Shown: positions 17,184 to 63,821 of the stretch, in pieces
How the letters are laid out: each line of letters begins with the position of its first letter
How positions within the stretch are numbered: position 1 is the stretch's first letter
Assembly: GCA_973895155.1 (NCBI GenBank)
Contig: OZ316893.1
Coordinates: forward strand, 3,640,490 to 3,704,489
Source: Marsupella aquatica
Lineage: Eukaryota; Plantae; Marchantiophyta
Reading direction: 5' to 3'
Length of the DNA stretch: 64,000 nt
Program-made: the position numbers and the translations under genes
The notes under the pieces: model-generated
What the model was told of the DNA's origin: nothing
The model's input: only the letters and a program-made list of their open reading frames with translations
Databases searched by the model: none

Positions 17184-18006
17184 CACGCATTTCGATGAGT
17201 ATTGTCAAAGTATTGTTACTTGCTGCCTCTTCTTGCAGTACTCTACCGAGTGGCGTGAGACTTGGTCATGATTACAGCCAGTGGTAAACCATCCTCTGTT
17301 CCTACTTCGATGACAGCACGCAAGATCTGTCTTAAAGCTGTCTAGGGAAGAAAACTTTCGGCACATTCGTTATTCCCAGTGTATTCGATCGTCAGAACAG
17401 GTAGGATCTATTTCCCACTCTATTTGTGCTGTCATTTTTTTATAGTAATTTGATTTCTCAGGCAACGCAACGACGGGTATGATCTCTGATAGCACGACCC
17501 ACATGTTGCAGAACAAGAGGTGGGCTTGGGGACGAACTTTGAGTCGATCAAATCTAAGCTGCTCACTCGTCGGTTATTTGTGTTGCGTTAGGCAGTGGAC
17601 ATCTCTCCAATTCTGCACTTGAGAAGACAACTCGAGGATTGAGTCATATCCTCGGTAATTGATAATATGGATGTTGGTTCAATCGATGAGTTGCACTTCC
17701 TCAGAGCTAGATTTCAGCATTCAAATAGCAGGGTCGATTTCATTCTTGGCTATATTCATGAGTACCTATCCAATCCTTGTAATTAGTTGTAGAAGGTCTA
17801 AATCACTGTTATCATTCACCTTTGCAGGAGGATTTTTAATGTTCTCGTTGGTTTTAAGGGGTATTCGTTGGATCCTGAATGTGTAGGTCGTAAACCTCAC
17901 AGTCGAGAGTACAAATCAAAATGCAATTACAGCAGCGTTGAAGCAGCCAACGAGTGAGGAGGGTGTCGAGAGTAAGCTGGCCAACAGCGAATTCGTGAGA
18001 GCTCAA

Positions 18007-21000
18007 ATGGATCGTTGGAAATCAATTCTGTGCCTGCTGTCGCTATTGCTGGTGTTTAGCCAGATCGCTGAAGCGAATAGGGTCGTGTGCAATGCAAATT
18101 CCATCGCCTTGGAAGCCCTGGATTCGAAGCAAAATTTCACAGTTGAGAAAATCGAAAACGTTGGTTATGGATTCTACTTTGAGAATCCTTCTCTTGTTGA
18201 AATAATGGGAGGCCCAAGTGTAACTCGAGGCCTGGTATTCTTATCCGAGGATGGTATCGACCCAGCTGCTTACGCTCCATATGCTCGTGGTAAGGAGTAA
18301 CATCCATCGATATGCTATAAAAACATTACTTTGTCTATGGACTTGCTCCATGCCACAAATGTATTTGTACTCCCCTGTGCAATCGCGAAGATGTATTTGT
18401 GTCAAGAGGATGCCGACAGTTGTTTACCCTCCAAATTCCAAGGTATTGGGCGGGGAAAACACGAAACTTACTGTGGATAATGCAGATTTCTCATTGATTG
18501 GGTGGAAGTAAGACCTTGTATAAATAACTTGGTTGAGAATATATTGGGTTTAAGCATAATTATGTTATCTAAACATCTGTCTGTCAATGCCACTCCTTTT
18601 AGAACATCGGGGACACTGAGGGTGTTTGGTAAGGGTCTGAATATGCCATCAAAGTTTCTCGCTTCCCCACTTTGCAGGAACTCGGAAATATGAATATAAA
18701 CAACACGAGTATATGATGCAAGGAACGGGTATGTCAATGGTTGGACTGTAAGAGCTGCAAGACTTCCTCATTATTTTTCCAGAGTCTCACAGTGCTATGA
18801 ACATTGAGCTTTTGTAGCGATCGCGCTTTTCGGATACTATGCGGTAATAGTGAATGCGGCGACTCCTGGGAGAGTTCTGGAGGCAATGATGCAACATCCA
18901 GAGTTGGTGTACTGGTCCCTTGTTGGACACGGCACAGGAGGGCAGTTAGCGGCAAGAATTGCAGTGACTCTTCAACCTAAAGTAAAGTCTCTTGTTTTAA
19001 TAGCATCTATGCTTCCTCCGGACGTGGACTTGCGGTCCCTCAACCTCTTTCTTACTGTCATGTATGGTGACAACGACGCCATCACCACTCCAGCGGAAGT
19101 CATCAACTCGTTTTCCCGCATGAGGGGTGAGTTACAATTCTGCAGTGCATTATTAGCACTTGATCTCAAATTTCATGCAAGTGTGTCAAGAACAGTTCGT
19201 TGATACTCCTTGATCAAGAGGTTTGATAGTTACCCCTATGGGAACTCGGGATTCTAAGGGGATTGGATGGTTATCCTCACGCAACTTTCCAATTTCTAAT
19301 GGGATTTGATGGTCACCATTTTGGAAACTTAAGAAAATTCTCAAGAGATTAGATGCCTTTCCTTTTGGAACTTGGAATGTTACGGGACTTTGATGGTAGT
19401 CTTTCGAAAATTCAAAACGTTGTTCTTGTTTGATTGCAGGAGATACGAGCGTTGTACAAATTCCCGGTTTTGGCCACTTCGACTTCGCTTACAGCACATG
19501 TGTGGGGAATACAAAAGCCCCATCCAATGTGACCTCGAGTGTCACAAACACTTTTATTGCAAGCATCAACCTCGCGCTCCTTCATTCGATTGCATTTGCG
19601 CAGTGGGCCACTGGCACACATAAGGCACTTTCTTATGGGGATAATCACTACTTGAGTCCGGGATTCAATGATTCCAAACCTTACCCTGGCGACATTCGTG
19701 TGCGTTTCGATGAGTTGCCGATCCCAGGCACTTCCCCCCAGGTTTGATTTCAATGTAATCCGGCCCGATGGAGGAAATGAATGAATGAAGGAATTGATGA
19801 TTTTTGATGTCCAGTGACACCAACGAAGGGACAGAGGGTATATAAAGGTGACACGTTGACTAATTCACCGTGTCACGAAAAAGAGAGGTGGGAAAGGAAT
19901 CCGAGGGCGGGGTAAACAGAAAAATTACAAAACAACGATTGCTCACTTCTTACGAAAAGCTCTAACAAGCTGCGCTACACAATCCTATAGTGCTTTCTAC
20001 GATTGAAGCTCTCAATTTTGGAATTGAGGCTGTAACCGAAATGCTTGAGACTTTTCCTCAGCGCAGTAGTTGTCTGTTTGATCTCTTTACCAGCAATGTG
20101 AACAGGCCCAACAACGGCGTTGAATTGATTCCGTTCTCTGCAGACAAGACTGTAATGGTTGAGTCCATCAGTTGAACCGAGAGCTCAACGTTCTAGGCTA
20201 ATTGGCGATTGTCGGATGGTAGATATTCGAGTGTATGACAGTTCACAGAACATGTTAGACTAACTTCGTCGGGGTTTCTAGGAATTCAAATTCTGTGGGT
20301 GGTCATTGTCTTTTCTGCTAAGCTGGATTTTTTGGGAATTTAAACGATTGCTGTGGACTCTGTACATTATACAGCGAACGTGGTGGGTGTTCACACCAAG
20401 CCGGATCAAGGGTGGAATTGTCTATTACCCCGGTGCTGCAGTAGATGGAACGGCGTACTTCCCACTGGCTTTTGAAATTGCTGCACGGGGGCATTTGGTA
20501 GTGATTGTCCAGCAGCCATCGCGTACGGCGAGTACCTTCCAGGACGCCAATACTGTCATAGACTCCAATCTCACCATATTTTCCGGTAACATTACTAAGG
20601 TTTTCAGTCCATACATTCCATCGTCTTCAATGGACTCATTGGACAATTTGTTTGCCTTGCAATTGGCGTGAATAATGACAGTGTTTTGCCAAGATTCCTC
20701 AGAAATACGCTCCTTGTCTCTCTCAGGGGGCTCCAATTTCTATTTGTTTCTCACGCCTCCTTAGCTGCCAATAATAGAGGTTGTTATCTCATCGTTTGCA
20801 GGAGTGCCGAAGGGAAGATGGGCGATTTCAGGCCACTCCCAAGGTGGTGTAGGAGCAACGCATTACCTGGCTTGCTTCGGTAACAAAGTATACGGAGCTG
20901 TTTTGCATGCGGGTGGTTGGCAAGGGAACTTCAACACCTCTGCAGTTCCTATCCTGCTGATCTATGGTAGCATTGATGACGTTGGAGGAGGAAATGACTC

Positions 21001-21358
21001 GTACGTAAGAAAGTTCGAAGGGTTTTTCAATCCGAACAAGACCACTTTTCTGGTCGTTGAAGGTGCCAATCACTATCAAATAGGGGATTACGGATACCAG
21101 GTCCAAGATCAGATACCGACCATCAGCCTGGAAGAACAGCACGCAGTTTTTGCTCGCCACACTGTCAGTTTTCTTGAGGGTCTGGAAACGAAGGTGTATG
21201 CTCCTGTTATCTCCGGTCCAGCCTGCTCTTCTCAGAAACTCACTGGACATTACTCTTTGGCGGATTTCCATCTCACGGACAAAATCCTCTCGACTCCTGA
21301 AGAATCTGCGCTTTCGAAGATCATCGAATTTGGTGCTGCTGATGCAGTCTATTCATAA
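18007..21358 (+). CDS. Secreted protein with two tandem alpha/beta-hydrolase (Abhydrolase_5-like) domains; exons 18007-18289, 18818-19126, 19440-19741, 20375-20585, 20802-21358; 553 aa
   Basis: Signal peptide MDRWKSILCLLSLLLVFSQIAEA. Domain 2 has YPGAAVDGTAYFPLA, GHSQGG, IYGSIDD and EGANHYQIGDYG. Domain 1 has the equivalent DPAAYAPYAR, GHGTGG, YGDND and PGFGHFDF. All four introns are GT-AG with compatible phases; the CDS totals 1662 nt. Confidence 0.85.
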
Positions 21359-25900: not shown

Positions 25901-27640
25901 TCCTGGTGGCTTGCCGCCATTCTGACACCAAGTGAATCACAGTAGAGAAGAACTGAGTGAAACACAGGGGCCGAGTTGAAAACATAGATAAATATTAAAT
26001 TGGCTCAAATTTCTTTCTCATTCAGTACACCCTTCCTGCAGTTGTTATCAAAACTGTCTGAGAGGCAAGATTCCAAACCAAACCTTCAATCATTACCAAA
26101 ATTTAGGAATTTACAAATTCAGAGAATAACTCAAGTTTCTATATTTCAGAAGGTCAGGGAATCTTGGAGTCGGGATTTACCTCGGAAATTATTTTCTGAG
26201 GGTCAAATAGAGTGTGACTGACGGGCGAAAAAACTTCAACACCGTTCTTCTGGCTAACTTCCTGTAAACCAAATTCGCTGAGATAGAATGTCACCCTGAA
26301 AACCAGAAAATAATTCTCCATGCAAAAGGCGTACATGAGAATCTACGATGGAGGCAGACGAATGGACTTCACAGTCAACTGAAAACCCAAAACAGACAGA
26401 CTTTTTCATCTGAGGTCGTCGCACCTTAATTTTCGTGTCGCGCTGACGTGCATACGGTTCAGTGTCCTGCTCGAAACATAATCTGTCGATACTCCACTGA
26501 TAAAAACAGAAATGTTAGTCTGGAAATACTGTTATAGCCTTCCAAATATTGTTTTCTCACCATTCCAAAGATAAAGATAATGGGCTTTGAAAAAATGCGC
26601 GTTTGTAGCTAACTGATTGATTAGAAAGACTGCAGAATTGTTCACTTGAAGTGCCATTTTAGACAATCAGCGCTTTTTGATACCCGATACTCCACTAGTC
26701 GCATTACCTACTGAGAAACGAACGATATCTAGTGATAATTGTTCACCAATGCTCCAGGCCATGAAGACTTACTTGAAAAACTAATCAAAATAACAATTAG
26801 AAAGAACCAGGACCGAGACTCCATGAGTTGAACCGCTAATTTAAGACTCGGAGGTGAAAGTTAGGTGATTGTTAGCAGATCCATTTTACTGAAGTGCTAC
26901 TTCAAAAACTAAACATAATTAGCACTAAGGTTTTTTGCAACTCCGTTGCTTAGACTGCTGAGTGAAAACCTTAACATTGCAATTGGCGCAAACTTTTATA
27001 AGATAGTCGACACAGTGAGGACTGCCAGAGACAATTGATGCTTTTGGTATTGTTGACCTGAGGATTGACTGCTTCCTAGAAACCAGAGGGTGGCAATTCG
27101 CTCAATGAAGGCTTCACTTGCCAGGTAGCGCTAGTTGAAGGATGTCCGTGACAAATGGCTGCAGCAGAGGAAATTTCGTACCTTTTCAAGGAGCTCTGGA
27201 ATGACCACTAAGGGACTTCCATGAACCAAAAGCAAACGGGACCCGCGAGCCTGGAGGTTTTCGTCCAAATTGCTTAGACTCTCAAGGAGAAACTTGATTC
27301 TATTCACGCCCACCGTTGCCGAGCCAGGAGATGGAGCTGAGGGGTCCGGAGCGAGAAAGAAGGGGTCGAGCACAAACACAGGGAGCACAGCCGAAGCTCC
27401 CTCGCAAGCTCTGTGCAGGGCAGGATTGTCGTGCAATCTCAGCCCTTTCCTGAACCACATTAGTGACCGCACTCCCATCTCGCTTCTCCCACCACCTCCC
27501 TCTCCCTCTCCGCTTCCTCTGCTTCCTTTGTCACACCTAATCGTGCAGCTGAGCTGACTGACTCGCAGTTGGCGAAATCCTGAGCACAATGGTTGAGCTT
27601 TCGGCAGCGAATTCAATGTCTTCCAAGACGCTAGCAGCAT
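22987..27640 (-). CDS. UVR3: (6-4) DNA photolyase, 14 exons, 612 aa
   Basis: Motifs [49 protein letters not shown] and DWSINNGNW. Exons: 27640-27182, 26496-26425, 26261-26181, 25921-25748, 25528-25460, 25348-25262, 25142-25044, 24884-24801, 24699-24613, 24485-24414, 24113-24000, 23734-23647, 23541-23446, 23243-22987. All introns are GT-AG; 1839 nt, frame open throughout. Confidence 0.95.
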
Positions 27641-28686
27641 TGAAGCTCCCTCTCGTAAACTCTATCTAAGCCACTCCAAAGCTTTCCCTGTTCCCCACCT
27701 GCTCCCGCACTCCTCTCGCCACTTCAAGTCATGAATACAGGACTCAAGCCATCTCCCTCACCGAAATTCGAAGTTGGCCTCGCCATCCGAAGGTCTCCAC
27801 CCACCCCTGTTCATCAGGAAACGACCCAATCCCCAAACTCACATTCCCAATTTGTCAAGATCTCATTTTGGTCCCTGTTCAGAGTGTTCGTGTGGTGCAG
27901 TCACCCCCATTTCATCAATGGACCTCCATCTCTGTAGAAAATTTGGAGCTTGTCATCCTCTCTTCTCCTCTCGTCTCCTCGTAACGTGAATCCAATCCCA
28001 GAGGTCTGTTTGAATCTGAAGGATTCGAATTTGCAGCTCAACAGCAGAGCGGTAAAGTTCCTCGATGCTATACTGTTACAGAATTAGCGGAGTTTTTCAT
28101 GGGCCCTCCAGGAACAACATGGTCCCAGAGGGACCACGTCAAAGTCCCCTGTGGGCACTCGTGGACGGCCAAGGATTACAAGATTGTGACTTATTTTACT
28201 AGTTGATATTAAACCACACCTGCCCCTACAAAGTTATATAGTGCACATAAAAAGTGCACAAGTTCATGAATGGGCACAAAAGGTAAGGTGGTGAGTGCAA
28301 AACCTTTTATTAGCAAGCGCTCCATTTTTTATGGTGAGACACTATTCATCACAGTACAAGAACGAGGAGTGCGGGGAAGGGGGCTTTTATACTAGCACCA
28401 AAATGCTTCAGACCTTGACAATTGGGAATGTGGCATTTTGGATCCAGCATAATAAACCCCAAGAAAGCCAGGTGACAAAAGGGACACTCTTCTGTTGACT
28501 TTGATGTCTATGTTTGTCACATATGTAAATGACTGACTCTCACATCCAAAACGTTATGCCTTCTTGCACATGCTATGTAGTTGGACTTAACCTTAACCCT
28601 TTCAATTGTGAACCTCATATCCAAACGTTATGCCCCAATTATCCCTTATCACCGTGGCACTCTTGGTTCTGTGGGTCACCCAATAT

Positions 28687-37552: not shown

Positions 37553-39804
37553 TATTCAGGGAGACGAGTCCCTGTTTTGTCATTAAATGCATCTTGGTTT
37601 TCCCCCACACCTCACCGGAAAACTCTCCTCGTTTTTCTGTCCCACTTTTTTCAGGCCAGCCTTTTTGGGTCCCCTAGCTGCCCCTGCCCATCCCATGCTT
37701 GGGCAGCCCTTAAAACCTAGCCCTTTTTGGTAACCACTTTATTTCTATATTTTTATTTCTATACTTTTATTTTAAATAATGGGTTCTCTGGCCCGCTCTC
37801 TGGTCATTAGTCAGATTTTTCTAACTGTATTTTGAAAGTTTGAAACATGGAAATAAGACCAAAGAGCCAAATAAGGCTAGCGCAGTCACCAATTGCAAGA
37901 AGAACTAAACCCTCCCTACAAATATAATTTTTTTCAGACAGGAATTCCTCTCAGCATTGAGTGTGGTTGCATTGAGGTCTCTTTTGTAGGAACAAAATTA
38001 TCTCAGGTTCCAGAAAAGAACTATCTGGTTGAAGGAGAATGTATATGTGACATTTCCAAAGAACAAAAAATGTGAAACCAGGAAACAGGATACCAAAGGC
38101 AAGTGACTCAATAAAGGGGTGAAAACATTAGCCTAACCTCTGTAAGATTAAAGAGCCAAAATAAGCCTGAGTCCAAACAACTGCAAAAATGACTAAAATA
38201 ACTACAACCCTACAGACAAATTTTTTTGGCATGAATCAAAGGATGTCGGTTGAGAAATGGAGTTGAGAAAAGACAAAGAAAGGAATTTCAAGGCAGAAAC
38301 TAAACGATCACAAAAAGCGCCAGCAAAATACTTGGTGGGTCCCCTCTAGGTAAAGATATTCGTGACTCTCACTTTTCAAATATACTTAATGGGGCCCCTT
38401 GTCCCTGCAACCCTTTCTCATGACCTGTGTCAGTGATTCTTTTCTGCATTTTTTAATTGTAACATAATCCTACAATTATCTACATCAGTCCACCAAATGT
38501 ACTCTCTAGAAGCAATTTTAAGTGTACACTTGCTTAAAATAAATAGATAACATATGTACAAAGTATTTAGCCCTTGTCACTCCCATATTCATTTTTTTTC
38601 ATGTGTTGAAATACTTGTGCAAGGTAAGTACTACTTTAAGGTACCTAATATTTACTCTCTTTAGTTATTCCATCTCAAATTTTTTGGCAGTACTCACACC
38701 TGAAAGTATTTCTCCAAAGCATAGTCTTACCTGAACTTTAGTAAGGCGAGTCAATGGTTTTGGGTACTATTTTTTAAAATTTGTTTTCTGCAAATAAATC
38801 AAGTGTGATTTAAACAATTCTTTGATGCTATTTTGCCAAAAAAAGGAGTCCAACGTGAGTATTTCCTAAACACACCGAGTTCTTTTTGTGAAAGTTTCTT
38901 TTGTGTCACTTTGAGTAAACATAGAGATGTGAATTGTGATATGATTTTGATAGCTAATTTTGTGGTTGTTTCACCAACATTGAGCTCAAATTTTAAGGTC
39001 ATATAACTGCTTTTACATTTGTTACTATATGCATCCTAGTGCTCATTTTTATGAATCAATTGATGCCTTGTGAATTTAATTAGTGCATTGTGTACTAAGC
39101 TAAACAATAAAAATTACCATTTAAGTGACATAAATTGCCTGAAATGCTCTAGCTAGATGCTCACATCTGAAAAAAACTTTCACAAAAATAACACCAACGA
39201 AAAGCTCAAGTCTAACATGAATATTTCCACAAAGGTTTTTGGCAAAATAGCATCAAAGAATGGTTTAAGGGCCACTTGATTTAACTGCAAAAAACAAATT
39301 AAAAAAAATAGCACCCAAATAGCATCGGTGAGGCACCCGGATTTCACCCAAACCATTGGTTCACCTTACTAAAGTTCACGGAAGACTATTCTTTGGAGAA
39401 ATTGGGGAAAGACATAGAAAGGGGATAAGGGAAAGAGTAGATGCTTGTCGTAAACACTCCTTCATGTCATAGCAACTTTGTTCACCACCCCTACTCAACA
39501 AACAGTCAGCAGCTGGAAGGGTGGGGTTTTAGGGGCTGCCCAGGCATGGGATGGAACCCAAAAAGGTTGGCCTGAAACCAACTTGTGACACAAAAATGAG
39601 GAGAGTCTTCAGGTGGGGTGTTGGGAAAGAAGGGTGTGATTTTAAGGGCTGCCCAGGCATAGGATGGGCAGGGGCAACGAGGGAACCCAAAAAGGCTGGC
39701 CTGAAACTGAATTGTGACACAAAAATGAGGAGGGTCTTCCGGTGGGGTGCGGGGGAGAACCGAGGTGCATTTAATGACAAAACAGGGACTAGTCTCCATG
39801 AATG
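37553..39804. mobile_element. Non-autonomous TIR DNA transposon, 2252 bp, ~170-bp TIRs
   Basis: The left end tattcagggagacgagtccctgttttgtcattaaatgca... matches the reverse complement of the right end ...tgcatttaatgacaaaacagggactagtctccatgaatg. Flanking direct repeat caacgga (37546-37552 and 39805-39811). No transposase ORF. Confidence 0.8.
38708..39402. mobile_element. Nested fold-back/MITE-like element inside the TIR transposon
   Basis: 38708-38845 is an imperfect reverse complement of ~39235-39402. Confidence 0.55.
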
Positions 39805-49606: not shown

Positions 49607-49920
49607 CAACTGTATGCTCAAATTGTAGGCCTGAAATACCGTGAAATATTGGCCTGTGCTAAACAATTTAATTGGCACTTACAATTCAATTCCTACAATG
49701 ATGGAGCTTAAAAATGAAGTTCAAATTGCCAGCTGCAACCTAGCAGGGGTAAGTACTACTACAAAACTGTATGCTCAAATTGTAGGCCTGAAATATTGTC
49801 AAATATTGGCTGTGCTAAACAATTTAATTGGCACTTACAATTCAATTCCTACAATGATGGAGCTTAAAAATGAAGTTCAAATTGCCAGCTGCAACCTAGC
49901 AGGGGTAAGTACTACTACAA
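49607..49920. repeat. ~157-bp near-perfect tandem duplication
   Basis: aactgtatgctcaaattgtaggcctgaaata...ggggtaagtactactacaa occurs twice. Confidence 0.85.
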
Positions 49921-50553
49921 ATTGTGGACAGAGCTCAAACCCCTCCAATTTGAGCTCAGGCAGCTGCTTCTATGGTGGGCAGCTTGAATCCGGTGGATGG
50001 AACCCAAACAATCAGCCATGTGCCTATCAATGCAAAGGTCCGAGGTGAAGCAATCACCTGAGTTGAACCCTCTGTCAACATTTTCTTCAGAAGGTTGACA
50101 TATTTCTCAAAAGATAGTTGGGGCCTATGCTTTGTGCAGGTACTCTTCATTTTCTGGAAACATCAAGCCTGCTGGAGGGCAAGCTTCAATGTTTGGAGGG
50201 AGGTACCGCACCTGTAGTGTGCAATCACGGGCAGTACAAGGGCAGGCCAACTGTGGTGGGAGAAACCATGGGTTAGGCTAACCCACCTGGGTAGACTTTG
50301 CCAATCAGGTGCTTTCTGGGGTATAAATATGAGTTACAATGACCTGCTCCGGTTTGGAGGGCCGTATAATATATAATTAAATTAGTTTGAAGATTAACTT
50401 AGTAAAAAGTTGTGAGAAATATTCTTAGGCAGCGTCTTCATTTTTGCACAAGTTGACATTGGCAACTATTGGCAAAAAAAAGGCCTTAAAAATAAGTTGT
50501 TTTGACCTGGTGACCAACACCCATGCAACTGTGTTCGCTATGTTGGTGGCCAG

Positions 50554-51156
50554 TGTCGTGCGCATACATATCGCTACACAACATACATCGCTTGTCACAT
50601 ACATCCAGACATAGTCACACTCCACATCACAAACACAAGAGAATGGAATACAAGTGGAACTCATGTCCACACATGTCCAAAACCCACAATAATCTCCATA
50701 CAATCGGCACAACGATCCCGGTCAACAATACCCTATCGATCCCGCACCGATCCGATCACACACATATGTCAAGCCAACGCACCTTGCACTACTCAAGGAA
50801 TCCACGTTACACAAGCGGAGCTCACAGCCACCATAGCCACTCAAGCTCCTCTCTCTCCAAGGCTCAACATTGAAAGATGACCTTTCAATGCCTCACAAGT
50901 GAGAAGTGCCCTCTCACACAAACCTGACGGAACCTTATCGGCTCCAATAGCACTCATACCAAACGTACATACTCTAATAGCATGATATACTACTACACTA
51001 CTCAGAATGGTGTGACAGCTGTCGTGCGCATACATATCGCTACACAACATACATCGCTTGTCACATACATCCAGACATAGTCACACTCCACATCACAAAC
51101 ACAAGAGAATGGAATACAAGTGGAACTCATGTCCACACATGTCCAAAACCCACAAT
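50554..51156 (-). repeat. 3' terminal repeat block (A-gc-B-A in element orientation)
   Basis: The two 137-bp A copies look identical and flank one 328-bp B copy. The A/B junction reads CGACA-GC-TGTCA (plus 51013-51024). A PPT-like AGGGGGGCG lies just inside, at 51157-51165. Confidence 0.9.
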
Positions 51157-51329
51157 CGCCCCCCTAGCTGGGAGTAAGGTCCCCTAACTCTAGCTAGCCA
51201 TGAGTTCTACAAGGTTGATATACACCTTTTTAGGTGTGAAGATCAGGAGGCTGGGTGCAAGTGAGCCCCATCGATCACCTACCTGCAATCCATATCTGCC
51301 AAGAGAACACAAATGATAACTAGTCGGCT

Positions 51330-52745
51330 TCACCGACACTGAGGACACAACCATGATCCACTAGGAATCACCTGCAATGGTGGTGTCAAACATGACATGT
51401 GTCATCCTCTAGAACACTTATCACAAATCAACATAGTAGTTGCTCCCTAATCCACACAACATATATTTCAAGCCAGCACGAACATGTGCCAAGCTTGGAT
51501 CTACTGTACCATCAATGTTGGGAAGGTGACATGGTGCACAGTTGCGCACATGATCCTTCCAAACTATACAATCGCGTCCCTCCAACATCAGGACACCAGA
51601 AGGCAACACTTCACGCACACGTAAGATTGTCCGGCCTGCGGTCACATCAAGTATCGTGGGTGCTGTCTGCTGCAAATAAATATAATCACCAGGATGAAAT
51701 CGTCGAATGCTTGCACGGTAACCTCCTCCACGAATAGTGGCATACCTCAAAGTATCACAATGTTGGGCAATGGCAAGGTTATCGAAAGCCATGGGCATCA
51801 CTCGCTGAAATACCCGTGCTCTCTTTGAACACACCTTGACCCAAACATCAGGATCATCCAAGTTCACAACTGATGCAGCATCACGACGAATAGCTGCTGG
51901 AAAATCTGGCTCCTACCATAGAGCAAAAAGTAAGGTGAGAAGGATGCAAGTGATGCTTGCCGACTAAAACGGTAGCCCATAGCTAACCAAGGTAGCTGGA
52001 GATCCCAATCTCCCAGATGACCAACCTGCAAGCCATACTTACGCAATCCTCTCTTCACAATTTGCACAACTCTCTCAGCTAATCCATCTGCCTCAGGATG
52101 ATCACGAGAGGTAGTACGATGATCAATCAGAGCTTGTTCACACAAACTCTCAAACTTTCCACGGAACTCAGTTCCCTGATCAGTCAACACCTCAGCTGGT
52201 GCTCCAAAATGACTGAGTACACGATCCAAAAATGTAGCAGCAACTCCTCCACTGGCTTTATCTGGCAACGCCACTAGCTTAATCCACTTGGAGAAGTGCT
52301 CCACCATGACCAAAACATACCGATTATGACGTTGGGTAAGAGGTAATGGACTAGCAAAATCCAAACTCCAACGATATCCCAAACCCATGATTGGCAACGG
52401 GTGCAACTGGGGAGTGGGAGCATTAAATGATGCTCTCACTCTATCACATACCACACACTTAGCTATCAACTACTGGACATAAGTATGCATACCACGCCAC
52501 CAATATTGTGTCTGCAGCAAGCTGTAAGTGCGCTTTACACCAAAGTGACACAACTCCTCGTGCGCATGTCGCACCAAATGTACTCTCTGTGATGGTTTTG
52601 GGACCACCAACACTCTACCATCATGCAATACTCTCAAAAGATGGTTTCCCTCCCATCGAAACGTCTTGGCTCTCTGTAGAACCCTGTCACGTTCCTTGGC
52701 ATCAACACTGCCAACAATAGAACCACTGCGCAGATATTCCAACAC
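51330..52745 (-). pseudogene. Retrotransposon DDE integrase (HHCC zinc finger + rve core) with a C-terminal PHD finger; disrupted
   Basis: HEELCHFG...CVVCD; WSLDFA, VLTDQGTEF and EADGLAERVV. The tail reads MLCG...[31 protein letters not shown]. Internal stops and frameshifts are present. Confidence 0.88.
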
Positions 52746-52766
52746 TCTCGAATCATTGTGGATATC

Positions 52767-54436
52767 TTATTTTCCAGTAGTTACCTCACTAACATCCACA
52801 TCTGAAGACTCATCATCCACTCCATCCAATGAGGTAGAGTCCACAGATCCACTGTATGCTGGCACCCAACAAAGAAAGGCAGATGCATGCCATCCTGGCA
52901 CCATCTCCTTATCTGACTCATCATGCCATCTGGCTCCAGTCTCATCTTGCTGACTGGTACATGGATTGCGGCTTAATCCATCTGCATCCAAGTTCACTTT
53001 TCCAGGCCTATGCACCACTTGGAAATCATACTCCTGTAACAACAATGCCCATCATGCAAGCTTCCCTGTAAGCTTGTCAGACTCCATTAACCACTTAAGA
53101 GGCTGATGATCAGTGATCAAGGTGAAGGGGTTACCAAACAAGTAGCAACGAAAGTGTGCAACAGCCCACACTTTCCCTCATAAGAGCTATACTTAGCCTC
53201 TGCTGAATTGTTTGATCTACTGGCATAAGCCACAACAAACTCATTCCCCTCATCGTCCTTCTGAGTCGGCACTGCTCCAAGTCCTACTCCACTCCAATCA
53301 GTGTGTAGCTGAAATGGTCTGCCTGAAATGGGTCTTCTCAAAATAGGGGATGATGCCAACCTTTGCTTCAACTCCTGAAAGGCATGCTCCTGGTCATCAC
53401 CCCAAATCCATTCCTGATCCAACTTAGTGAGTATGGTCAAAGGGTTAGCAAGCTGGCTAAATCCTTTAACATACCTCCTGTAGTAGCTTGCCAATCCCAA
53501 GAATGCACGAACTCTACTCACATCAGTAGGATAAGGAATCTGTGTAATGGCCTCCACTTTAGTCTGCTGTACACCCAATCCCCCTGGGTATATAGTGTGG
53601 CCCAAATACTCAATCTGGTCTTGGAAGAACTTACACTTGCTAGGATGGAGCTTCAACCCATGTGCTCTCAATCTCTCCAACACAGTCTGCAAGTGCTACT
53701 GATGTTCTTCCACAGTAGAAGAATAAACCAAAATATCATCAATATAACATCTGACAAAATCCAAACCTGCAAGGATTCGATCCATGACTCTCTGGAACTC
53801 AGCTGGTGCATTCTTCAACCCAAATGGTAAGAATAACCACTGATACAAACGATCTTTGCCATAAGAATCAATCCCCCAGAATGCTGTCTTGGACCTGTCA
53901 GCATGCCTAATTGGAACCTGATGGTACCCTGCCCTCAGATCCAATGAACTGAAAACCTTTGCATGCCCCACAACATCAAAGATCTCTTCAGGTGTGGGCA
54001 TGGCATATCTATCAGATTTTGTTTGGCGATTAATGGGTCTGTAATCACCACACATGCGCCTATCTGTGTAATTGCCATGCACATCCTTCTTGGCTGGCAT
54101 CACTATGGCAGATGCATACTCCCCATATGAAATCTCCACCAATCCAACCTCCAACAAATCTTGAGTTCTGCTTTGAATCAGAGCTCTCTCCATGTCACTG
54201 TAACGGTATGGCCTACGAAAGATTGGCGCATCACTAGCCAATTCAATCTGAATACCAGGACCCTTTAATGTCCCCAAATCTTTCATGCTAAATGCTAAAC
54301 AATTCTAGTAACTCTTCAGGAATTGATGCATGCGACGTCTCTCCTCCCCTGTCAACTTAGGGCCAAGCTGTGGTTCCCAACTCTCCACCAAATCCCTAAT
54401 ATCTCTTTGTAGGGTAGAAGAGATAGCCGATGATTG
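52767..54436 (-). pseudogene. Retrotransposon reverse transcriptase and RNase H; disrupted
   Basis: RMCGDYRPIN, LDLRAGYHQV, LPFGLKNAPAEFQR and YIDD; RNase H motifs LHTDWS, VAYASR, YSSYE and ADGLSR. In-frame stop at 53696-53698. Confidence 0.92.
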
Positions 54437-54639
54437 CTATTTAGCAGTAGATTGAGTAGTCCCTTCCTGCTCAACAATCTGTCTAGTCTTGGCCAATCCT
54501 GCCATAGGTCCATGGACTGTCTGCTCGCCCCCAGCTGTGGTCAATACTGTCTCAGTGGACCGCAAGCTCACCAAGGGACAATTAGTAATTCCAGCAGAGC
54601 GCATCCGCAACTGTTCAGCTACTCCCAAGCTGATAATCC

Positions 54640-55600
54640 AAGTCAAACAATTCAGGTCCATTGCTTGACCAAGGACCTGGCGCCGCAAACCCTCTGACAC
54701 AGAGGCAACTGCAGTGGTGCCAGTCAAAATCCCATAGCACGCTCTCTCTCATCAGCAGAAGGCTCCACTAACTGCTGGAGAGCTGTATCCCACACAAGTC
54801 CAGGGCCACCTGCTCTGAATGCATATGAAGTAGAGTGGCTTACAAGAGTGGGTAATGCACAACGTGGGCGCCCAACTGCATTGACCATTGCCAATGGAGG
54901 TCTATTAGGTTGGGTCACACCCTGTGCCCGACGCCCTGGATCCAAAATATCATCCACCACTAAGGCTGGTGAGCGTGGAATGCTGTCAAATGCGCGCTTC
55001 AGCACCTCACATGGGATCAAATTAGATCAAATTAGTCCACCACAAGCGTGGACGATGTGCACGAGAACCCACATGTGCAGCATCCAATAACACAGCAGGT
55101 CCAATCCAAGACCTCACCTGGTGAACATTGGCAACAATCCGACTACGATCATCACCTAACAATGGCACATTCTCCAAAATGTATGTTGGAGACTGTGTTT
55201 GATGTAGCTGGAGATGACGCAGCACCCGTAACATCTCCCAAAACAATGCAGAGCGTGGATCATGAAGTCCATGCCCAATGCCAGCTCTAGATTGGCCCTG
55301 ACATGGCCAACCAGCAATCACCAAATCAATGGGGCCAACACGATGTAGATGATCCGCCCCCAACAAGGAAATATCAGCAGGTAGTGCATGTTGATAACCA
55401 CGAACAGCATCCACTGGCAGCAACTGTGGATATCTATCCACCAACATAGCCACATGTCGCAATGAGACTCTCCGTGCTGTCTCATCTGTCTCCACATACA
55501 AATAACAACGCACAGGAATTCCTGCCTGAAGAACAACAGCCAATCCAGTGCTAATCCCACCAAAAAGATCCAACAAACAAATACCCTCCGGTGGATATTG
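54640..55600 (-). pseudogene. C5 cytosine DNA methyltransferase domain within pol; two frameshifts
   Basis: Motif I LDLFGGIS, II YVETD, III ADI, IV IAGWPCQG, VI ILENV, VIII HRPRLWW, TRD PTL, IX SADERERAMGF, X RQVLGQAM. Confidence 0.88.
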
Positions 55601-55783
55601 CCAAGCAATAGGAGTGGTATCCAACGGTGAAAGAGTCACAGGTCCATCTGCAAGAGACTGCTCTGCTCCTGACTGTGGTGTAAAAGCATGACGCCATGCA
55701 TCATGTACCAATCGTGCTACTGCTTGTGGCAAGGTCTATGTAGTGCCCCACACTGGTGGCACAACACTGCCAACAGGTAATCC

Positions 55784-56488
55784 TCACATGATGTGCTCCT
55801 CATGAGATTCCTCCAATGGTGGAACATCGGCTGCATGCGCATTACCCTCAATCAAATCATCAGGTCCAGCAATTACACCACTAAATGCTGCCAAAGACAA
55901 TGGTGTGGATTTAGGGCCTCCCACAGGTCCACTAAATCTCACTAGCAATTTGCTCAATCGAGCATCTCCTGACTGCCAATCAGGTCCATATGACACTGAT
56001 TCCTCCCAAAAATCAAGAATAAATCCCATCCATGGGTAGAGCACTGTACATCCCACCAACACATCATATGACTTTGCCTTAGTCAGAATAGCTCGCGCTT
56101 GTATCTGTGAGCTATCTGTGGTATGACCTTCCTGAATCCTCAAATCAAGTGGTCTCCTGGTGATATGCTGTGTAGGTGTAGGTCCCCCCAATGAAGTCTG
56201 AATGGGAAAGGGACAATCCTCCAAATCCTCTAGATGCAATCCCAATCCACGTATGGCAGACTTCCCCAACATCAAGGGCTGAGCACTAGTATCAAGTAAC
56301 ACTCTCTCTGGCTGGTATACTACTCCAGAAGGCCCAACTAATCGGAAGATACCACTTCGATTATCCAATGACACAACACTAGGTTTAAACCTAGTCCTCT
56401 CAAATGCAGGGCGTGCTGGTAAATCCACCAACCTCGCTGCTGCTGCATGCCATGTCTCACTAGTAGCAGTACGTGCTATGGTCTTCAC
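55784..56488 (-). pseudogene. Retrotransposon aspartic protease region
   Basis: VLLDTSA (D-T-G-like active-site motif) and a downstream DVLVG motif; located between gag and the MTase. Confidence 0.7.
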
Positions 56489-56541
56489 TGCTTCAACACT
56501 GCAAGCTACTTCTGCATGGGAAGCAACAACTGGAGTGTCCT

Positions 56542-56837
56542 CTCGGGGGTCTCACTATATGGGGACCTCCCCATCGCCTGTGACGTTTTTAGGCCTCGGA
56601 CCCCCTAAAATGTAAGAATTTTTTTTATTTTTTAACCCTTATAAAGTTGGAATATTCTTGGAATATTCCAAAAATTGGATTAAAAAGACCCTAATGTTCT
56701 TATAAGTCTCAAAATTGAATTTAAAAGACCATATTGTTCTTCTACAAAAATTCTTAAGTCTTCCCTTAGAACCAATAAAATGACCCTATCCTTCGTCGCA
56801 CGTGATATGCCACTTTTGTGGAAGTGAAACCCCCGAG
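56542..56837. mobile_element. 296-bp MITE inserted in the retrotransposon gag-pol
   Basis: TIR ctcgggggtctcac/gtgaaacccccgag; perfect 8-bp TSD agtgtcct (56534-56541, 56838-56845). Same family as 14396-14685. Confidence 0.88.
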
Positions 56838-56873
56838 AGTGTCCTCACAGAGTGTAGCTACCAATCTGAACAC

Positions 56874-58624
56874 TTATGCAGGACCAACTCCCAAGTTCAG
56901 CATGTCTGTCGCTGAAAATAATGGGGTGCATACTATGGCAGTAGCCACCCCCAGTAGGGTACCTGTCATCCCTACTGTATCACTACCGGATTCTGCCAAC
57001 TTACCCACGCCAGGGTTTATCCGAACCGGGTTCATAGAGGCAGTCTGAACTGTCTTTGACAATGTAAAAAACTGAGGAAGCTTTGTCTGCCGATGTGCAT
57101 CCCCCCTCTGTGGATCTACCTCCACTACTGATCCTCGGGGCTCAAGAGCTTTGGCTGCCCCACGTGTCAAAGCTACTGATGCATCAATATGTGCAGTGCC
57201 ACACATGAATCCCATGGTGGCAAGATCTCCATCAGCTCCATAAGATGTGGAAGGACCATGGGATGTGGAAGGTCCATAGGATGTAGATGCCCCATCACCC
57301 GAAGTAGGTCTCACTTGGGAACTAGCCATGGCAGCTAGTTGTTGCTCCAATTGAGCAATTTTAGCATCCTTTGGATCTATGGTTACAGCAGGGGCAGCGT
57401 CACCTCCCTGTCTCCCTGCATGTGGCATGCCACGACCACGTCCACCACCTCTACCTCCTCCTCCTCTTCCCTGATCATGTGTACGGGATCCTCCCCTCCG
57501 TAACTCAGGGTGGAGTGAGAAACACCTATCCTTGGTGTGTCCAGGAGCTCCACAATGATCACACTATCGCTGATCAGGTGCTGATGCTCCCCCTGATCCT
57601 CTATGATCTGGGAAATATCTCTGTGCATGATCCCCATCACAGGTCCAACATCCTGACTGCTGTCTAGCATAAGAGGGCACAGGTCTCTGGCTGGTAGACT
57701 CTCGTGCAATAGGCTTCTTCCTCTGGCTCTTCTGTGCAGTAGGTTGTGGTGTAGATGTAGATGCAGCCTTTGGTGCTTCCTTGGCAAATCCGGAAGTCAT
57801 CACCTTCTCATTCACCATATTGAGCTCAAATTCTCTGTCCAGAATTGCATACCGAAACTGGACTGCTTGAGCCTCTGTCACTCCCTTGGTGACAGTGATC
57901 AATCTGCGCATACGAGTGTATGCCTCACGTAGACTCTCTCCAATCTTGCGCTGGAACTCCTGGAGACCCTTCAACTTATCAGTTCTCACACCCTGATAGT
58001 TCTGCTTCAGTACCTCAAAGAATTCCACCACAGGATTAAATGTTGGCGCAACTCCAGTTCCTGTCACAATCACACCGGCAGGAGTAGCGGTGGATGCTGC
58101 TGGAGTGCTGCTGGTGGATGGTGTGCCACTCTGGCTAGTGTTGCTAGAAGAGGCAGCAGCTGTGGCAATGGGTTGGGCAACTGCACTAGTGCCATAGGTG
58201 ATGGACACGTAATTAGGTGACCAATGCTGCCTCCATGCCTCAATCTCAACCAAATGAGCCTTCCGAAACTCATGGTAGTCATCCATGGGTGGCCCCTCCA
58301 ATTGCTGAAATAATCCCTTCCATGCCATGAAAGGGGTAAACAACGTGGCGTTACGCAATGTCTGCATATCGCACCACGTATCAAACTCCTGGATGAAGTC
58401 ATCCAGATCAATTGTGCCAACTGCACCAAAGTATCATCATGGGCCCTTTGTAGCCCCGTACATCTCGTCCATATCCCACAACAAAGGTGCAACCACCTGA
58501 TGACGAGGAGAACTGGTCACTGAGTCCTCGTCGGAATCACTGTCAAAAGCTGCACTGCTGACTGCTACCAATACCGCTGGCCGAAACTACGCCCCACTCT
58601 GAGTGAAACCGGTCTGTCGTCCAT
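56874..58624 (-). pseudogene. Retrotransposon gag with CCHC zinc knuckle(s); disrupted
   Basis: DLDDFIQEFDTWC and QRKIGESLREAYTR (capsid-like). A degenerate knuckle CWTCDGDH and an intact CDHCGAPGHTKDRC are followed by an RGG-rich tract. The start position is approximate. Confidence 0.75.
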
Positions 58625-60155
58625 CGGGTAACCCAGCAGCACCAGAAGAATCCGTGGTGACCAACCTAACCTAATCTATATGTTAACCCTAAGGGCAACC
58701 TGTCCCTGTCAGCAACACAAGCACTCACCATGGTGTGTTGGGCATCACTCCAACATCACCAGGAGAGAAATACGTAGCACAACTAGAATATCCGGTCGCA
58801 AACCCGGATCACTCCTATAGAATCAAGTGCCCACGCCAAACCAACATGGCGCATAAACAGGAAGCATGTGTGGAGAGGATCCAACAACAAGAAGAGGATT
58901 TACCACAACTCTCCACACCAATCAATCAAAAATACATGAAAATAATGTGCATATAGTTCAATGTAGGGCCTTCATAATAGGCCTCAAGAATCCCGCGTCA
59001 AATGTTCAAGAATCCATCGCAAACTAGCTAAAACAGAGTATCTAGATGAATTCAAAAGTGCATAAAACCCCTAGGGCCTCATTTCTTGGACACCAAGTGT
59101 GGAAGGAAGCATGTACAATGCACCACATAGGAACTTGCTAGTTAAGCGCATGAGGGGAGGATTAGCTTTGGGATGGGTGACCTCTCACTTGTCATTATGC
59201 ACCAAATCTGCCACTCCAAAATGGCAGCACTTGCAATTCTCCTCACGTACTGGCTTGCTGGCCCGCCCGCTCTTGCTCCGCCCTCACGCCCCTCATCCCG
59301 AGTAACCATGAGTTGTCTCGAAGCCTTGAAACGCCGAGATGAGCCAAAGAGTGAGCCCTTCACGCCCACTACGCCGGAACCAAGTCCAGATTTCGCACCA
59401 TTCGGACTTCTGGCCCCTGTTTCCCTTCGCAGAACTGCACGGTAGCGGCGTACACTCCGTCGCAACAGCAATCCGCGGATGCTGCCACCGCATTGACGTA
59501 CTGTCTCACAAAAATGCAGATCGTCGGTTGAAATCTCACAACATTTGGGTCTCAATCCCTCAGTTTCCTTCAAAGAAACACGTTGCAAAATGCAGCTCGA
59601 CTTCGCGTCAACCAACACTTAACCGAGCGCAAAATCAGCAACATATGCAGCTGCCGGCAGTCGCTTTCTTCACACCAAACTTGGTCCGCACAGATCAGCA
59701 TACGGAAGAACTAGACAACAATACGGCCGCGCCTCGCAGATTTGCATACGGACAAACTAGATAGCAATATGGCCGCGCACTTCGCAAATCTGCAACCGAT
59801 GACACCATCAGAATGTTGTTTCCTTCACAAAAACAGCCACCGCTTCACAGGATAGAACACTGCCGCACCCGATCTGCTTGTAGCCAACCGATACAACTCA
59901 AACAATTCGATCTGCAACCAAGATCTGCACACTGTCGACAGATTTGTGCATACAGGCTACAGATCTGCCAAACCTCCAACTCCAGATCCGCTCAAGAATC
60001 AAACTCACAGGATCTCAACTTGGATCCACATGCCGGCGATCCAATCAAACGATACGCTGCACGATCCGAGATACCACGAACCGTCGCCGAACACAATCAA
60101 ACTGAAAATCGAAGCTCTGTCCAACAACAGCAGAGTCCGATGCCTGATCTTTCAA

Positions 60156-60485
60156 TGTAATCTCCATACAATCGGCACAACGATCCCGGTCAACAATACC
60201 CCATCGATCCCGCACCGATCCGATCACACACGTATGTCAACCCAATGCACCTTGCACTACTCAAAGAATCCACGTTACACAAGCGGAGCTCACAGCCACC
60301 ATAGCCACTCAAGCTCCTCTCTCTCCAAGGCTCAACATTGAAAGATGACCTTTCAATGCCTCACAAGTGAGAAGTACCCTCTCACACAAACCTGACGGAA
60401 CCTTATTGACTCCAATAGCACTCATACCAAACGTACATACTCTAATAGCACGATATACTACTACACTACTCAGAATGGTGTGACA
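60156..60485 (-). repeat. 5' terminal repeat (B) of the retrotransposon
   Basis: Matches 50690-51017 with about 9 substitutions in 328 bp (counted by eye). Reads TGTCA...TTACA on the minus strand. Confidence 0.9.
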
Positions 60486-63095
60486 CCAGCAAGACCATTC
60501 TCTTCCATTAATAATGGATTTTCAGAGGCTTTCAAGATGGTCGGGGGGGGGGGGGGTTATTTCTTAGTTTGCCTCTTAGTGGAGTTTTTGTTGTTGTGAG
60601 GCACTCACTGGTTTGTTGGGCCTTGAGTTGGGCCTTTGTGGTCTCCTCGGGGTCTTTCCTTCCCCCCCTCCCTTTATTGGGTCTTTTAATTTTGCCTTTG
60701 GGACCATGTCTCCCCATTTGGCTTTCCTGTCTTCTTGGCAGTGTTATATATAGGCTAACTGCCTGTCCCATATATCAAAATCTGCTTGGATAGCACTTTT
60801 TCCAATTTTGACTCATATGTGACCTATAAACAAGCTCCTGACCGTTTGCAGCTGGTATTCCACTAATATACAAGGTGGTAAGTCGCAGCTCAAGCAAGCT
60901 ACTCAGAGTGTCCTTCCCAAAAGTGAAGCGCCCTTTCCCCAAGGTGGTAAGTTGGTGCTCTTGCCTAAGTACTGAGGGCGTTCTTCACAAATGTGAAGCG
61001 TCCATTGGCCATTACTTTATAATGTTCGACCATCTTTGCACTCATTGGCAATGGATCAAATGGTTTCAGAAAAAAATTAACTTTGTCAGACAATAGATTG
61101 GACATCAGAGAACATGTTGCAAACGTTTGAGCTGAAACAGAGATCAATAAATTGTCCAAATATATACACAAGTTTGCTGAAATCTAACATTTTACACTTG
61201 CAAAATCTACTGAGGGAGTCTTTCTCAAAAGTGAAGAGTCCTTTTACATATAGCCCGGCGGTGTGAATTGTGGGTATAAAGTGAAGCAGTGTGTGTCACA
61301 GGCTATGCTGGTGGGCAAAACACACCCCTCGTCCATCCAGGCTAAACTTTCCAAGAGAAGGTCTCACCTTTTGACCCCCCGAAAATGTATACATCTGCAA
61401 AAAAGGGGACCCACTCACAGATGGTTGGGTAATTGTTTTGACTAACCCCATGACCCGTTCCTTGAACATAAATAGATATATGAAAAAAATCTTGCAACAA
61501 TAAGTTTTTTATGCTATTATTTTTGGTTAGTCTTTGCCCCATCCTTGCTTTTTGTCCATACTCATTTCAGTTTTGTCCCTTTTAGAGTTAATGTCACTTT
61601 TGTATATACTCATTTAAAAATTTCACCTTATTGAACCCTCACTATCAGTATTGTCTTTATTTGGAGTTATGGTCTATAGGCTTTACTATAGATCTAGGCC
61701 CTTAAGAGTAGGCTTCAGTTGACGCTTTTATTGTAAGATTGAATTGATTGTGTCCCCAAAATCGTGTAAAGTGAAGTCTGACGGCCAAGACTACATCTCA
61801 CATGGAAACCCACATTTGACTGGCTAGGATTACATCTCAGTCATAGAAAAACAGGGAATTGCTACCGGGTGTAAAGCCACCCGTATCCCATGGACCGCGA
61901 ATTCAGACGCTACTGCACTTTTTTACTCGGCACGACACCGCGTTGTGTACTCCTCCCGTCTCCGCCATTCCATTGGGCCAGTCGGCTCAGACTGGCTCCG
62001 CCATTGACCTGGTTGGGAGAAGCTTTTCAAGCTCCAAGCAGTTGCGACCTTCCTCAGCTCCGCTGTCTCTGGGTCTCTCCTCTGCAGCCCACATGTCTTG
62101 ATAGTTGATACCCTACCAGGCTTTCACTCAATCACCCTGCCTCCCTGTTTCTTGTGGTTTGACTTCCAGTGTTCCATCAATCGGACTGTAAAATTGTCAG
62201 CTCAATTGTCTTTTGTGTTGGGTGCAGATTGAGTCATTGAGGATTTGAGCCTTTCGTGGGGTGCAGAGATTCTCATGCACCGACCCAAATGGGCCAAGGC
62301 AACAAGGAACCTGCTGCAGAAGTGAAGTGTAGCAAAGAAAGTAAACTACGTAGTATATTCTGGGAGGATATGATCATGCACAAAAATAGGAATCGGACTT
62401 CATTCGTGTCCAGCGGCCTTGGAAGAAGCGGATGGAGCCAGGTCAAAGGATAGGTTGCTCTGCAGGACTTCAATGGTGGCGGTGGGGAAAGGAAGCGCGT
62501 TATCCGCTGCTTCACCTGAAATCAGTGCAAGGTAAGTTAGTGCAAGTTGCCAATGCCGAAGTCAAGAACGGAGGAGCGCGAAAGGATTGCGACGAGCTGG
62601 TAATCCCTTGCGGCCGACCTTGTTGTGCGGCCGATTCTCCTTGAGTTGCGGAGATCGGCGAGAGAGTGCTCTCTGTCTGTCTCCCAGTTGCACTGTCACG
62701 GCAATAAAACTACTGTGCAGATTTCATTCGAGAACGAAGGGCCACAAAGGATTCGATTGATGGGAACAGTTCTGGTGGGAACTGGGAAGTGAGTGCGGAA
62801 CAACGGTGTGACAGGTAACAATTTCGAGGAGAACAGAGAGCGGCCGACCGACTCTTGATGAGATTGTTGAAAGTAGAGTGGATATTTCGGAGCTGGACTG
62901 GACTCGTACAGTATTGGAGGAGTAGCAGATTTTTGAAGGAGGAGACGGAGGTGGGAGCTCAAAGGCAACGAGGAGTTGGACACGGGAGGTAGCATCTGCG
63001 GTGATTTTTTAGGGAGACGCTGTGGGGTTTCTGTATAAAACGAGAAGGGTTGGTTTTAGCGAGTTTGTTGTCAATACAGTACTTGGAAGGACATC

Positions 63096-63821
63096 ATGGG
63101 GCAAACGGTGTCCTTGCCTGAGTGCGTCACTGGAGGATCCGTGGTCCGTGTGATGAAAACTGACGGAGAGTTTGTTCAATTCGATTTCCCATGCATTGCC
63201 GCTGAAGTAATGGTGCAGCACCCGGGGCACATAGTGGTGCATTGTTCTCAGGTGAATAAGAACAATCTTGGGCAGAGGACCAAGATAACCATCATACTCC
63301 CTGACAGGCCCCTCTTACCTGGCCAACCTTACATGCTCTATCCCATACCTGATCAATACAAGAAGAGCTTGGCAAGGTCAAAGTCGTTTTCTATGCTGAA
63401 GTCGAAGTTTGAATCGACCAATCTCCCTGCAGTGAGTCCCGCGGAGAAGAGGCAGGGCAGACGAAAGGCTTTGAAAATGATTTTCACAAGGTTGAACTTG
63501 GCCACTTATGTAGCTTCCAACATGAACGAAAGCAACGAGGTCGAGCATAGTGGCGCAATTCAACCTGACCGAAATTCTGCACAGGTGCAAGAAATTCAAG
63601 AAGAGAGTGAGGACACGGACCAGCTGACGGTGCAGTTACCGAATCCTGCTGACTTGAATTTTGCTTGGAGACCAATTTTGACCACAATTCCGGAGTCACC
63701 TCTTGGGTTCCATAGTCATCCGGAATCGCCCTTGGGGCTTTACAAGATGGACGGTGCCATTCCTCATTCACCTCTTTCTGTGGGTTCTCGTCCCTTGCCC
63801 CCTTTTGTCACTGCTTCATGA
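63096..63821 (+). CDS. DUF4228 (PADRE) domain protein, 241 aa, intronless
   Basis: MG start; VRVMKTDG...AAEVM..HPGH.V...L.PGQPY.LYP; C-terminal WRPILTTIPE, matching the family WRPxLxxIxE motif. Confidence 0.85.
   Translation: MGQTVSLPECVTGGSVVRVMKTDGEFVQFDFPCIAAEVMVQHPGHIVVHCSQVNKNNLGQRTKITIILPDRPLLPGQPYMLYPIPDQYKKSLARSKSFSMLKSKFESTNLPAVSPAEKRQGRRKALKMIFTRLNLATYVASNMNESNEVEHSGAIQPDRNSAQVQEIQEESEDTDQLTVQLPNPADLNFAWRPILTTIPESPLGFHSHPESPLGLYKMDGAIPHSPLSVGSRPLPPFVTAS

Follow-up and report, generated by a model that had tools for sequence, protein, structure and literature searches.

An intron-less C5-methyltransferase domain carried by a land-plant retrotransposon is confirmed in the window, that is, in the whole stretch of 64,000 nucleotides of the liverwort Marsupella aquatica (contig OZ316893.1) that was analyzed. 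We judge it moderately probable, from sequence comparison, that this copy represents an old, multi-copy Ty3/gypsy lineage in which a conserved DNMT3-like domain ends the Gag-protease reading frame, the stop codon behind that domain is read through, the methyltransferase (DNMT) is made at the level of Gag, and the enzyme methylates the element's own cDNA.

The element has the Ty3/gypsy order of protease, reverse transcriptase (RT), RNase H and integrase, with an integrase of the DDE type. Its parts, in window coordinates, are the following.

50554..60485, minus strand: full-length Ty3/gypsy-type element of 9.9 kb with TG...CA ends and the layout A1-coding-PPT-B1-A2-B2, delimited by self-BLAST
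50550-50553 and 60486-60489: 4-bp target duplication, CCAG
60159..60485, minus strand: repeat A1, beginning TGTCA, with 9 differences from A2 in 328 columns
60335..60346, minus strand: predicted self-primer in A1 that can form 12 Watson-Crick pairs with the 12 nt following A1, a match equalled by 0 of 200 shuffles
60147..60158, minus strand: predicted primer-binding site of the self-priming type, no tRNA match
56844..58472, minus strand: Gag, interrupted by stops, with two CCHC-like knuckles (tblastn to Marchantia P0005; motifs)
56542..56837, unstranded: MITE in ORF1 with an 8-bp duplication, AGTGTCCT, and short TIRs; second copy at 14396-14686
55950..56420, minus strand: aspartic protease region with active-site motif DTS (relatives match Asp_protease models weakly)
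54590..55615, minus strand: DNMT3-like C5 cytosine methyltransferase domain, disrupted by two frameshifts, one at about 55026 and one at about 54725
55573-55556, minus strand: C5-methyltransferase motif I, LDLFGG
55315-55295, minus strand: motif IV, AGWPCQG
55180-55166, minus strand: motif VI, ILENV
55054-55037, minus strand: motif VIII, RxR..W
54750-54739, minus strand: motif IX, ERER
54673-54656, minus strand: motif X, GQAMD
54431..54439, minus strand: in-frame TAG (54439-54437) followed by CAA TCA, the predicted readthrough signal ending ORF1 (motif as defined in PMC3542737)
52860..54430, minus strand: RT and RNase H (ORF2), broken (PF00078, PF17919, PF17917)
51470..52800, minus strand: DDE integrase (H2C2 and rve), broken (PF17921, PF00665)
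51333..51464, minus strand: C-terminal PHD finger, broken (tblastn; PF00628 in unbroken relatives)
51157..51167, minus strand: polypurine tract (PPT) directly before B1
51020..51156, minus strand: repeat B1, ending ACGACA and followed by GC, which gives a palindromic GACA-GC-TGTC junction with A2
50691..51017, minus strand: repeat A2
50554..50690, minus strand: repeat B2, the 3' end of the element, with 0 of 137 differences from B1

The MITE, which we take to be hAT-like, is about 296 bp long with CTCGGGG...CCCCGAG ends; its two copies are 78% alike, and its summed depth exceeded that of its host element in 3 of 4 runs. Elsewhere in the window, a host PADRE-domain gene at 63060-63821 is 83% identical to Calypogeia fissa (the best of 5 matches), which points to a leafy liverwort as host, and 50% identical to Riccia fluitans, nested inverted repeats of 80-170 bp lie about 2 kb apart at 37554-39803 and are possibly a DNA transposon remnant, and a 157-bp tandem duplication, 97% alike, occupies 49608-49921. 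Presumed host exons at 3353-5015, 17887-21355 and 27134-27661 resemble, by eye, P/U-type cyclin, alpha/beta hydrolases and photolyase/cryptochrome.

In the window copy, frameshifted as it is, the methyltransferase motifs I, IV, VI, VIII, IX and X follow one another in canonical, unpermuted order and without introns, between the protease motif (56299-56279) and the YIDD motif of RT (53746-53735), on the minus strand. The motif coordinates thus bear out the original prediction of an ordered, intron-less set of C5-methyltransferase motifs between protease and RT on one strand, and with it the idea of a retrotransposon-borne methyltransferase in a land plant, of the kind known from charophyte elements. 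The window reading frame was left unrepaired, and natural fragments and natural unbroken relatives were analyzed instead; a match to PF00145, on which that prediction hinged, was obtained from the unbroken 5' piece of the domain alone (E 6e-12, 46 bits, cut-off 22). The two lesions it had named, a 10-bp tandem duplication at 55016-55035 and a 1-bp loss near 54725, the latter seen as a change of frame, were both found. The loss at 54725 is absent from most other copies in public runs, and near 55028 these copies show loose ends or a 10-base gap. What did not hold is the placement of the domain inside Pol: in this clade the Gag-protease ORF has the DNMT at its C-terminal end, and RT, RNase H, integrase and PHD finger lie behind a conserved stop, fusion of DNMT and RT being confined to a more distant clade.

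The window copy is dead. Besides the two lesions in the DNMT, it has some 12 premature stops and no fewer than 5 frameshifts, its protease motif reads DTS rather than D[ST]G, and the MITE has inserted into it. The repeats (A and B together) differ at 9 of 465 bases, which at a moss substitution rate near 9e-9 corresponds to an insertion age of roughly 1 million years. Within this one copy, these 9 differences contrast with the 12 or so stops and 5 frameshifts of the coding region; the copy may have been defective already when it moved, or it may have decayed fast through deamination.

Ranking of PDB entries by the family profile placed DNMT3A first (E 1e-15), then DNMT3C and DNMT3B, with DRM (4e-6) and M.HhaI (3e-4) behind them. 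The AlphaFold model of a natural relative (P0002, 78% identical, pLDDT 84) had DNMT3A/B as its best Foldseek match (E 4e-17), and its comparison with DNMT3A/B by VIA gave a Z of 27.5 with an rmsd of 2.9 and 277 aligned; VIA Z values for other enzymes were 25.2 (M.MpeI), 21.9 (M.HhaI) and 18.0 (DNMT1). In the ESM Atlas, a Streptophyta cluster shared the nearest place with two PF00145 clusters from phages, all at 0.96, which favors neither origin. By profile and fold similarity, rather than by a tree with named DNMT3s, the nearest solved relatives of the domain appear to be DNMT3A/B. The family has the motif set of active C5 DNA methyltransferases (I, IV, VI, VIII, IX and X, with the catalytic Cys, Glu and Arg). 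Across 77 copies, the catalytic Cys is kept in 72, the Glu in 73 and the Asn in all, and the motif VIII arginines are kept in 46 and 57 of these 77 decayed copies. Motif IV reads ECQ instead of PCQ in 34 of the 77, namely in the clade with fused DNMT and RT (L042-L080), and also in the Closterium protein P0038.

With the DNMT fused to Gag ahead of a leaky stop, particles would carry many DNMT domains, and methyltransferase would be produced in large excess over the copying enzymes. We have good confidence that most ribosomes would stop after the DNMT and that a few per cent would read through. The protease would then free the DNMT inside the particle, and the enzyme would methylate extrachromosomal DNA, a step to which we give slightly less than an even chance. 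At that same strength, methylation of the element's own cDNA is the most likely role of the DNMT, and it has been proposed for DIRS-Dnmt3 elements (PMC5890265). Alternatively, instead of marking cDNA in the particle, the enzyme could act, once the element has integrated, on the chromatin of host or element, or could bind DNA or RNA and leave it unmethylated; we regard this as possible, if rather unlikely. The PHD finger that ends ORF2 is a chromatin reader and would suit a role in chromatin, and expression at the level of Gag would also yield free enzyme, but the fusion to Gag would point to the particle. This alternative would agree with the finding that the isolated KnitGypsy-Dnmt3 domain of an alga did not methylate yeast DNA, a result that its authors termed inconclusive (PMC5890265); retention of the catalytic Cys, Glu and Asn in nearly all copies argues against a purely binding role. 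Depletion of CpG was considered as a sign of self-methylation and dropped: the CpG ratio is 0.36 in the element coding region and 0.63 in the rest of the window, which host methylation explains equally, there being no control that lacks the DNMT.

The split-repeat layout A-coding-B-A-B was found in the window element and in L034, L040, L043, L045 and L049, and five of the six complete elements have TG..CA ends with a 4-bp target-site duplication. The B1/A2 junction is GACA-nn-TGTC in all clades (9 of 11 rows at the true junction), and A2/B2 joins the end of A exactly to the start of B in five of six elements, being one base off in L045. No tRNA-iMet-like primer site was found in the 6 elements examined. 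Of 8 elements, 5 show self-primer pairing of at least 12 nt where it is expected, between the bases after A1 and the middle of A; the pairing sequences of three clades are unrelated to one another, and in clade III the pairing follows a TATAAAA by about 30 nt. For L040, L043 and L012 the search gave no such pairing or indicated another place. The 5 elements are predicted to self-prime in the manner of Tf1 and Tj1, whose sequence behind the 5' repeat pairs with the repeat near the transcript start.

Reverse transcription would probably be self-primed, and from the predicted primer site and PPT we expect a linear cDNA of the form B-A...B-A. The layout in the genome is a circular permutation of this predicted cDNA and corresponds, we infer, to a two-LTR circle opened at the internal GACA-nn-TGTC. 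That is, the cDNA ends would be joined, and integrase would open the circle at the internal CA-nn-TG to give A-coding-B-A-B with a 4-bp duplication, which we hold to be reasonably probable. A circle would offer two CA-nn-TG sites, yet the 6 complete copies all show the same opening, which counts against this scheme. It is improbable, in our estimate, that the layout arose instead through a DIRS/PAT-like route or later recombination. The layout is indeed that of DIRS-type elements (PMC5890265), and cleavage at an internal palindrome is reported, in the accessible part of PMC3185514, only in vitro and only for HIV integrase. However, DIRS/PAT elements have a tyrosine recombinase and no DDE integrase, and here a tyrosine recombinase gave no match and an rve integrase is present instead; the TG..CA ends and 4-bp duplications, together with the clean A2/B2 join of two predicted cDNA ends, likewise favor opening of a circle by integrase.

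The amount of enzyme would be set by the stop behind the DNMT. In the window, a single in-frame TAG closes the Gag-protease-DNMT ORF ahead of the RT ORF. Seven long relatives consist of Gag, CCHC, protease and DNMT and end 70-137 residues past motif X, and in the unbroken L018 and L081 one TAG lies between the Gag-protease-DNMT ORF and a 1047-codon ORF in the same frame for RT, RNase H, integrase and PHD finger, whose best PDB match in L018 is Ty3 Gag-Pol (E 4e-98). UAG-CAR-YYA is the type I readthrough motif of tobamoviruses (PMC3542737), and it is found here in frame between two coding frames. The TAG-CAR-YYA occurs in the window, L018, L020, L027 and L056 (5 of 61 rows), and also in L081, as CAA TCA or CAG TTA. 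These copies differ at the R and Y positions only, L061 and L065 have a one-base variant of this context, and the background rate is 60 of 20,492 TAGs. In the stop-bearing clades, 26 of 34 rows have a linker length divisible by 3, the other 8 being off by small indels or deletions, and the subfamily lengths (459, 516, 570, 630 and 639) are all multiples of 3. At 54431-54446, no difference of at least 5% is listed in any of 4 public runs; codon-position counts after the stop show a mild third-position bias only. The stop after the DNMT is likely leaky, and would be read through into RT, RNase H, integrase and PHD finger.

Other clades differ at this point. In the moss-type clade, TAG/TAA-CAA-CCY is present in 24 of 27 loci, in the context stop-CAA-CCC-ATG-GCN, which lacks the final A of the consensus and has an in-frame ATG two codons on; given the imperfect context and the nearby ATG, this clade may use reinitiation. 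Among the 26 loci of the third clade no stop is conserved, and in L049 a single frame holds both DNMT and RT, so that an excess of DNMT over RT is not needed family-wide. In P0262, from another subfamily, a Trp stands where ORF1 of its relatives ends, followed by in-frame Gln-Pro, which is consistent with a stop that is read through. We consider it very unlikely that RT and integrase are made from spliced or subgenomic RNA or by reinitiation, with the stop as an ordinary terminator. Reinitiation could draw on the moss-type context, and splicing has a precedent in Ogre elements, in which the stop region between protease and RT is spliced out. Against both stand the exact CAR-YYA, variable only at the permitted positions, and the triplet linker lengths; moreover, a crude scan around the stop found no shared splice-like sites, and 3 of the 6 CAR-YYA copies (L018, L056 and L081) have no AUG behind the stop until codon 117, which lies within RT, earlier AUGs being present in L020, L027 and the window.

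Relatives of the domain numbered 50 among the longer proteins and 659 by profile search, 120 of which were listed. Named relatives among the matches listed come from Marchantia polymorpha, M. paleacea, Calypogeia, three Sphagnum species and Closterium, whose P0038 is 36% identical to clade III; among these named matches, a minority of all (120 of 659 listed), there were no fern, lycophyte or seed-plant names and no Klebsormidium protein. A first metagenome scan with the window piece as query gave no matches, and an alignment scan provided a set of 80 loci, the best of 303 confirmed. The order protease, DNMT, RT, RNase H, integrase, PHD is found wherever these loci reach those domains, a few of them with nested or neighboring elements; 60 of the 80 reach RT, and all 60 have the DNMT in that order, though all 80 were found by the DNMT domain itself. 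In 4 of the 17 public runs listed, the summed contig depth over the DNMT was similar to that over RT, and in 3 of these it was, for both, far above the flank contig (in X1, about 2-3 x 10^5 versus 51), a ratio that is not a copy number. A quick DNMT tree, from which P0030, P0048 and P0049 were left out, and a FastTree RT tree have the same main clades. In two distant relatives, P0039 and P0040, the DNMT occupies a second position, between RNase H and integrase (RT-RH-DNMT-IN-PHD).

Between the window copy and its 5 nearest loci, dN/dS (Nei-Gojobori) was 0.16-0.18 for the DNMT, 0.07-0.12 for RT, 0.12-0.18 for RNase H and 0.06-0.09 for integrase, and the DNMT median was 0.23 over 154 pairs at dS 1-2.5, these pairs being non-independent and near saturation. 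Close pairs gave higher values (DNMT 0.44-0.59, RT 0.38-0.58), as expected from decay after insertion. The DNMT domain is thus family-wide and under purifying selection (dN/dS about 0.16-0.23), rather than drifting neutrally. That a host DNMT3 gene was captured once, in this copy, or hitchhikes neutrally, for which the heavy decay of the window copy might speak, is refuted by the family-wide order, the depth in the runs and the dN/dS, and we give it virtually no chance. The outcomes that the original prediction had named as fatal to itself, namely a one-off capture, neutral evolution and the lack of a PF00145 match, were none of them found. As to other sources, 0 of 26 pattern matches were confirmed in IMG/VR, and 1 of 6 in GTDB genomes. 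The latter, L081, is almost complete and comes from a cyanobacterial bin, but we read it as plant contamination rather than as bacterial in origin; P0108 and P0283, also filed under bacteria in cyanobacterial bins, are likely plant contamination as well.

The elements are now placed in liverworts and peat mosses, and include several annotated genes of Marchantia polymorpha, a species with methylation mutants and methylomes, so that the role of a retrotransposon's own DNMT becomes testable. The stop signal predicts the amount of enzyme made, and from the anatomy of the repeats one would predict that a DDE integrase uses a circular intermediate, which would surprise specialists. The ORFs of these elements raise the apparent number of DNMTs annotated in bryophytes and turn up in bacterial bins. 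We put forward only tentatively, as doubtful in its entirety, the complete scheme of a liverwort and moss lineage with a DNMT3-like enzyme at capsid stoichiometry through a leaky stop, self-priming, circular methylated cDNA and a palindrome cut by a DDE integrase. If true, the element would be one of the LTR class that integrates by way of a circle, and it would supply land plants with a mobile source of de novo methylation.

In the literature that we covered, descriptions of the DNMT-carrying kind are confined to dinoflagellates and K. nitens, joined in 2026 by other algae. The capture in Klebsormidium was treated as lineage-specific in 2018 (PMC5890265), and according to a 2019 opinion paper, land plants such as tracheophytes lack methylase-encoding transposons (PMC6338049). 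Outside subscription journals, which our coverage did not include, we found no land-plant description and no readthrough or replication model, and six Marchantia gene ids derived from the match names are not mentioned. Bryophyte elements are not described in the accessible parts of PMC11982613, PMC9033089, PMC10952607 and PMC12344493; the last of these and bioRxiv 10.64898/2026.05.21.726589 speak of 'streptophytes', and their supplements may include land-plant sequences, as may the supplementary figures of PMC5890265.

Individual features of the element have counterparts elsewhere. The UAG-CAR-YYA is shared with the type I readthrough of tobamoviruses (PMC3542737), but here it would gate the RT and integrase of a retrotransposon. 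Tj1 and Tf1 of fission yeasts share the Ty3/gypsy type and self-primed reverse transcription, and Tj1 needs a stop between gag and pol; that stop ends Gag, whereas the liverwort stop follows protease and DNMT, and Tj1 and Tf1 have ordinary LTRs and no DNMT (PMC4600332). EpiLTRs and DAM-LTRs are likewise LTR elements that encode DNA methyltransferases together with a chromatin reader, but their DNMT is sister to DNMT4 and is accompanied by DAM and a chromodomain, in Cymbomonas and Euglena (bioRxiv 10.64898/2026.05.21.726589). SymbioDIRS-Dnmt3, which methylates CG de novo in yeast, shares a retrotransposon-borne DNMT3 and the A-coding-B-A-B repeats, yet it is a tyrosine recombinase element of dinoflagellates, whereas the window element has a DDE integrase (PMC5890265). 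Closest by description, and possibly related by descent, is KnitGypsy-Dnmt3 of Klebsormidium nitens, which shares the Gypsy domains, an unpermuted DNMT3-like domain, DIRS-like split repeats and purifying selection; the accessible text on it does not describe self-priming, target-site duplication or readthrough (PMC5890265). According to its authors (peer-review file), its DNMT is in the same ORF as RT, an arrangement found here only in clade L042-L080, whereas a conserved stop lies between the two in the window and the two nearer clades. The DNMT-carrying retrotransposon type is already published for an alga, and what differs here is the land-plant host and the stop after the DNMT.
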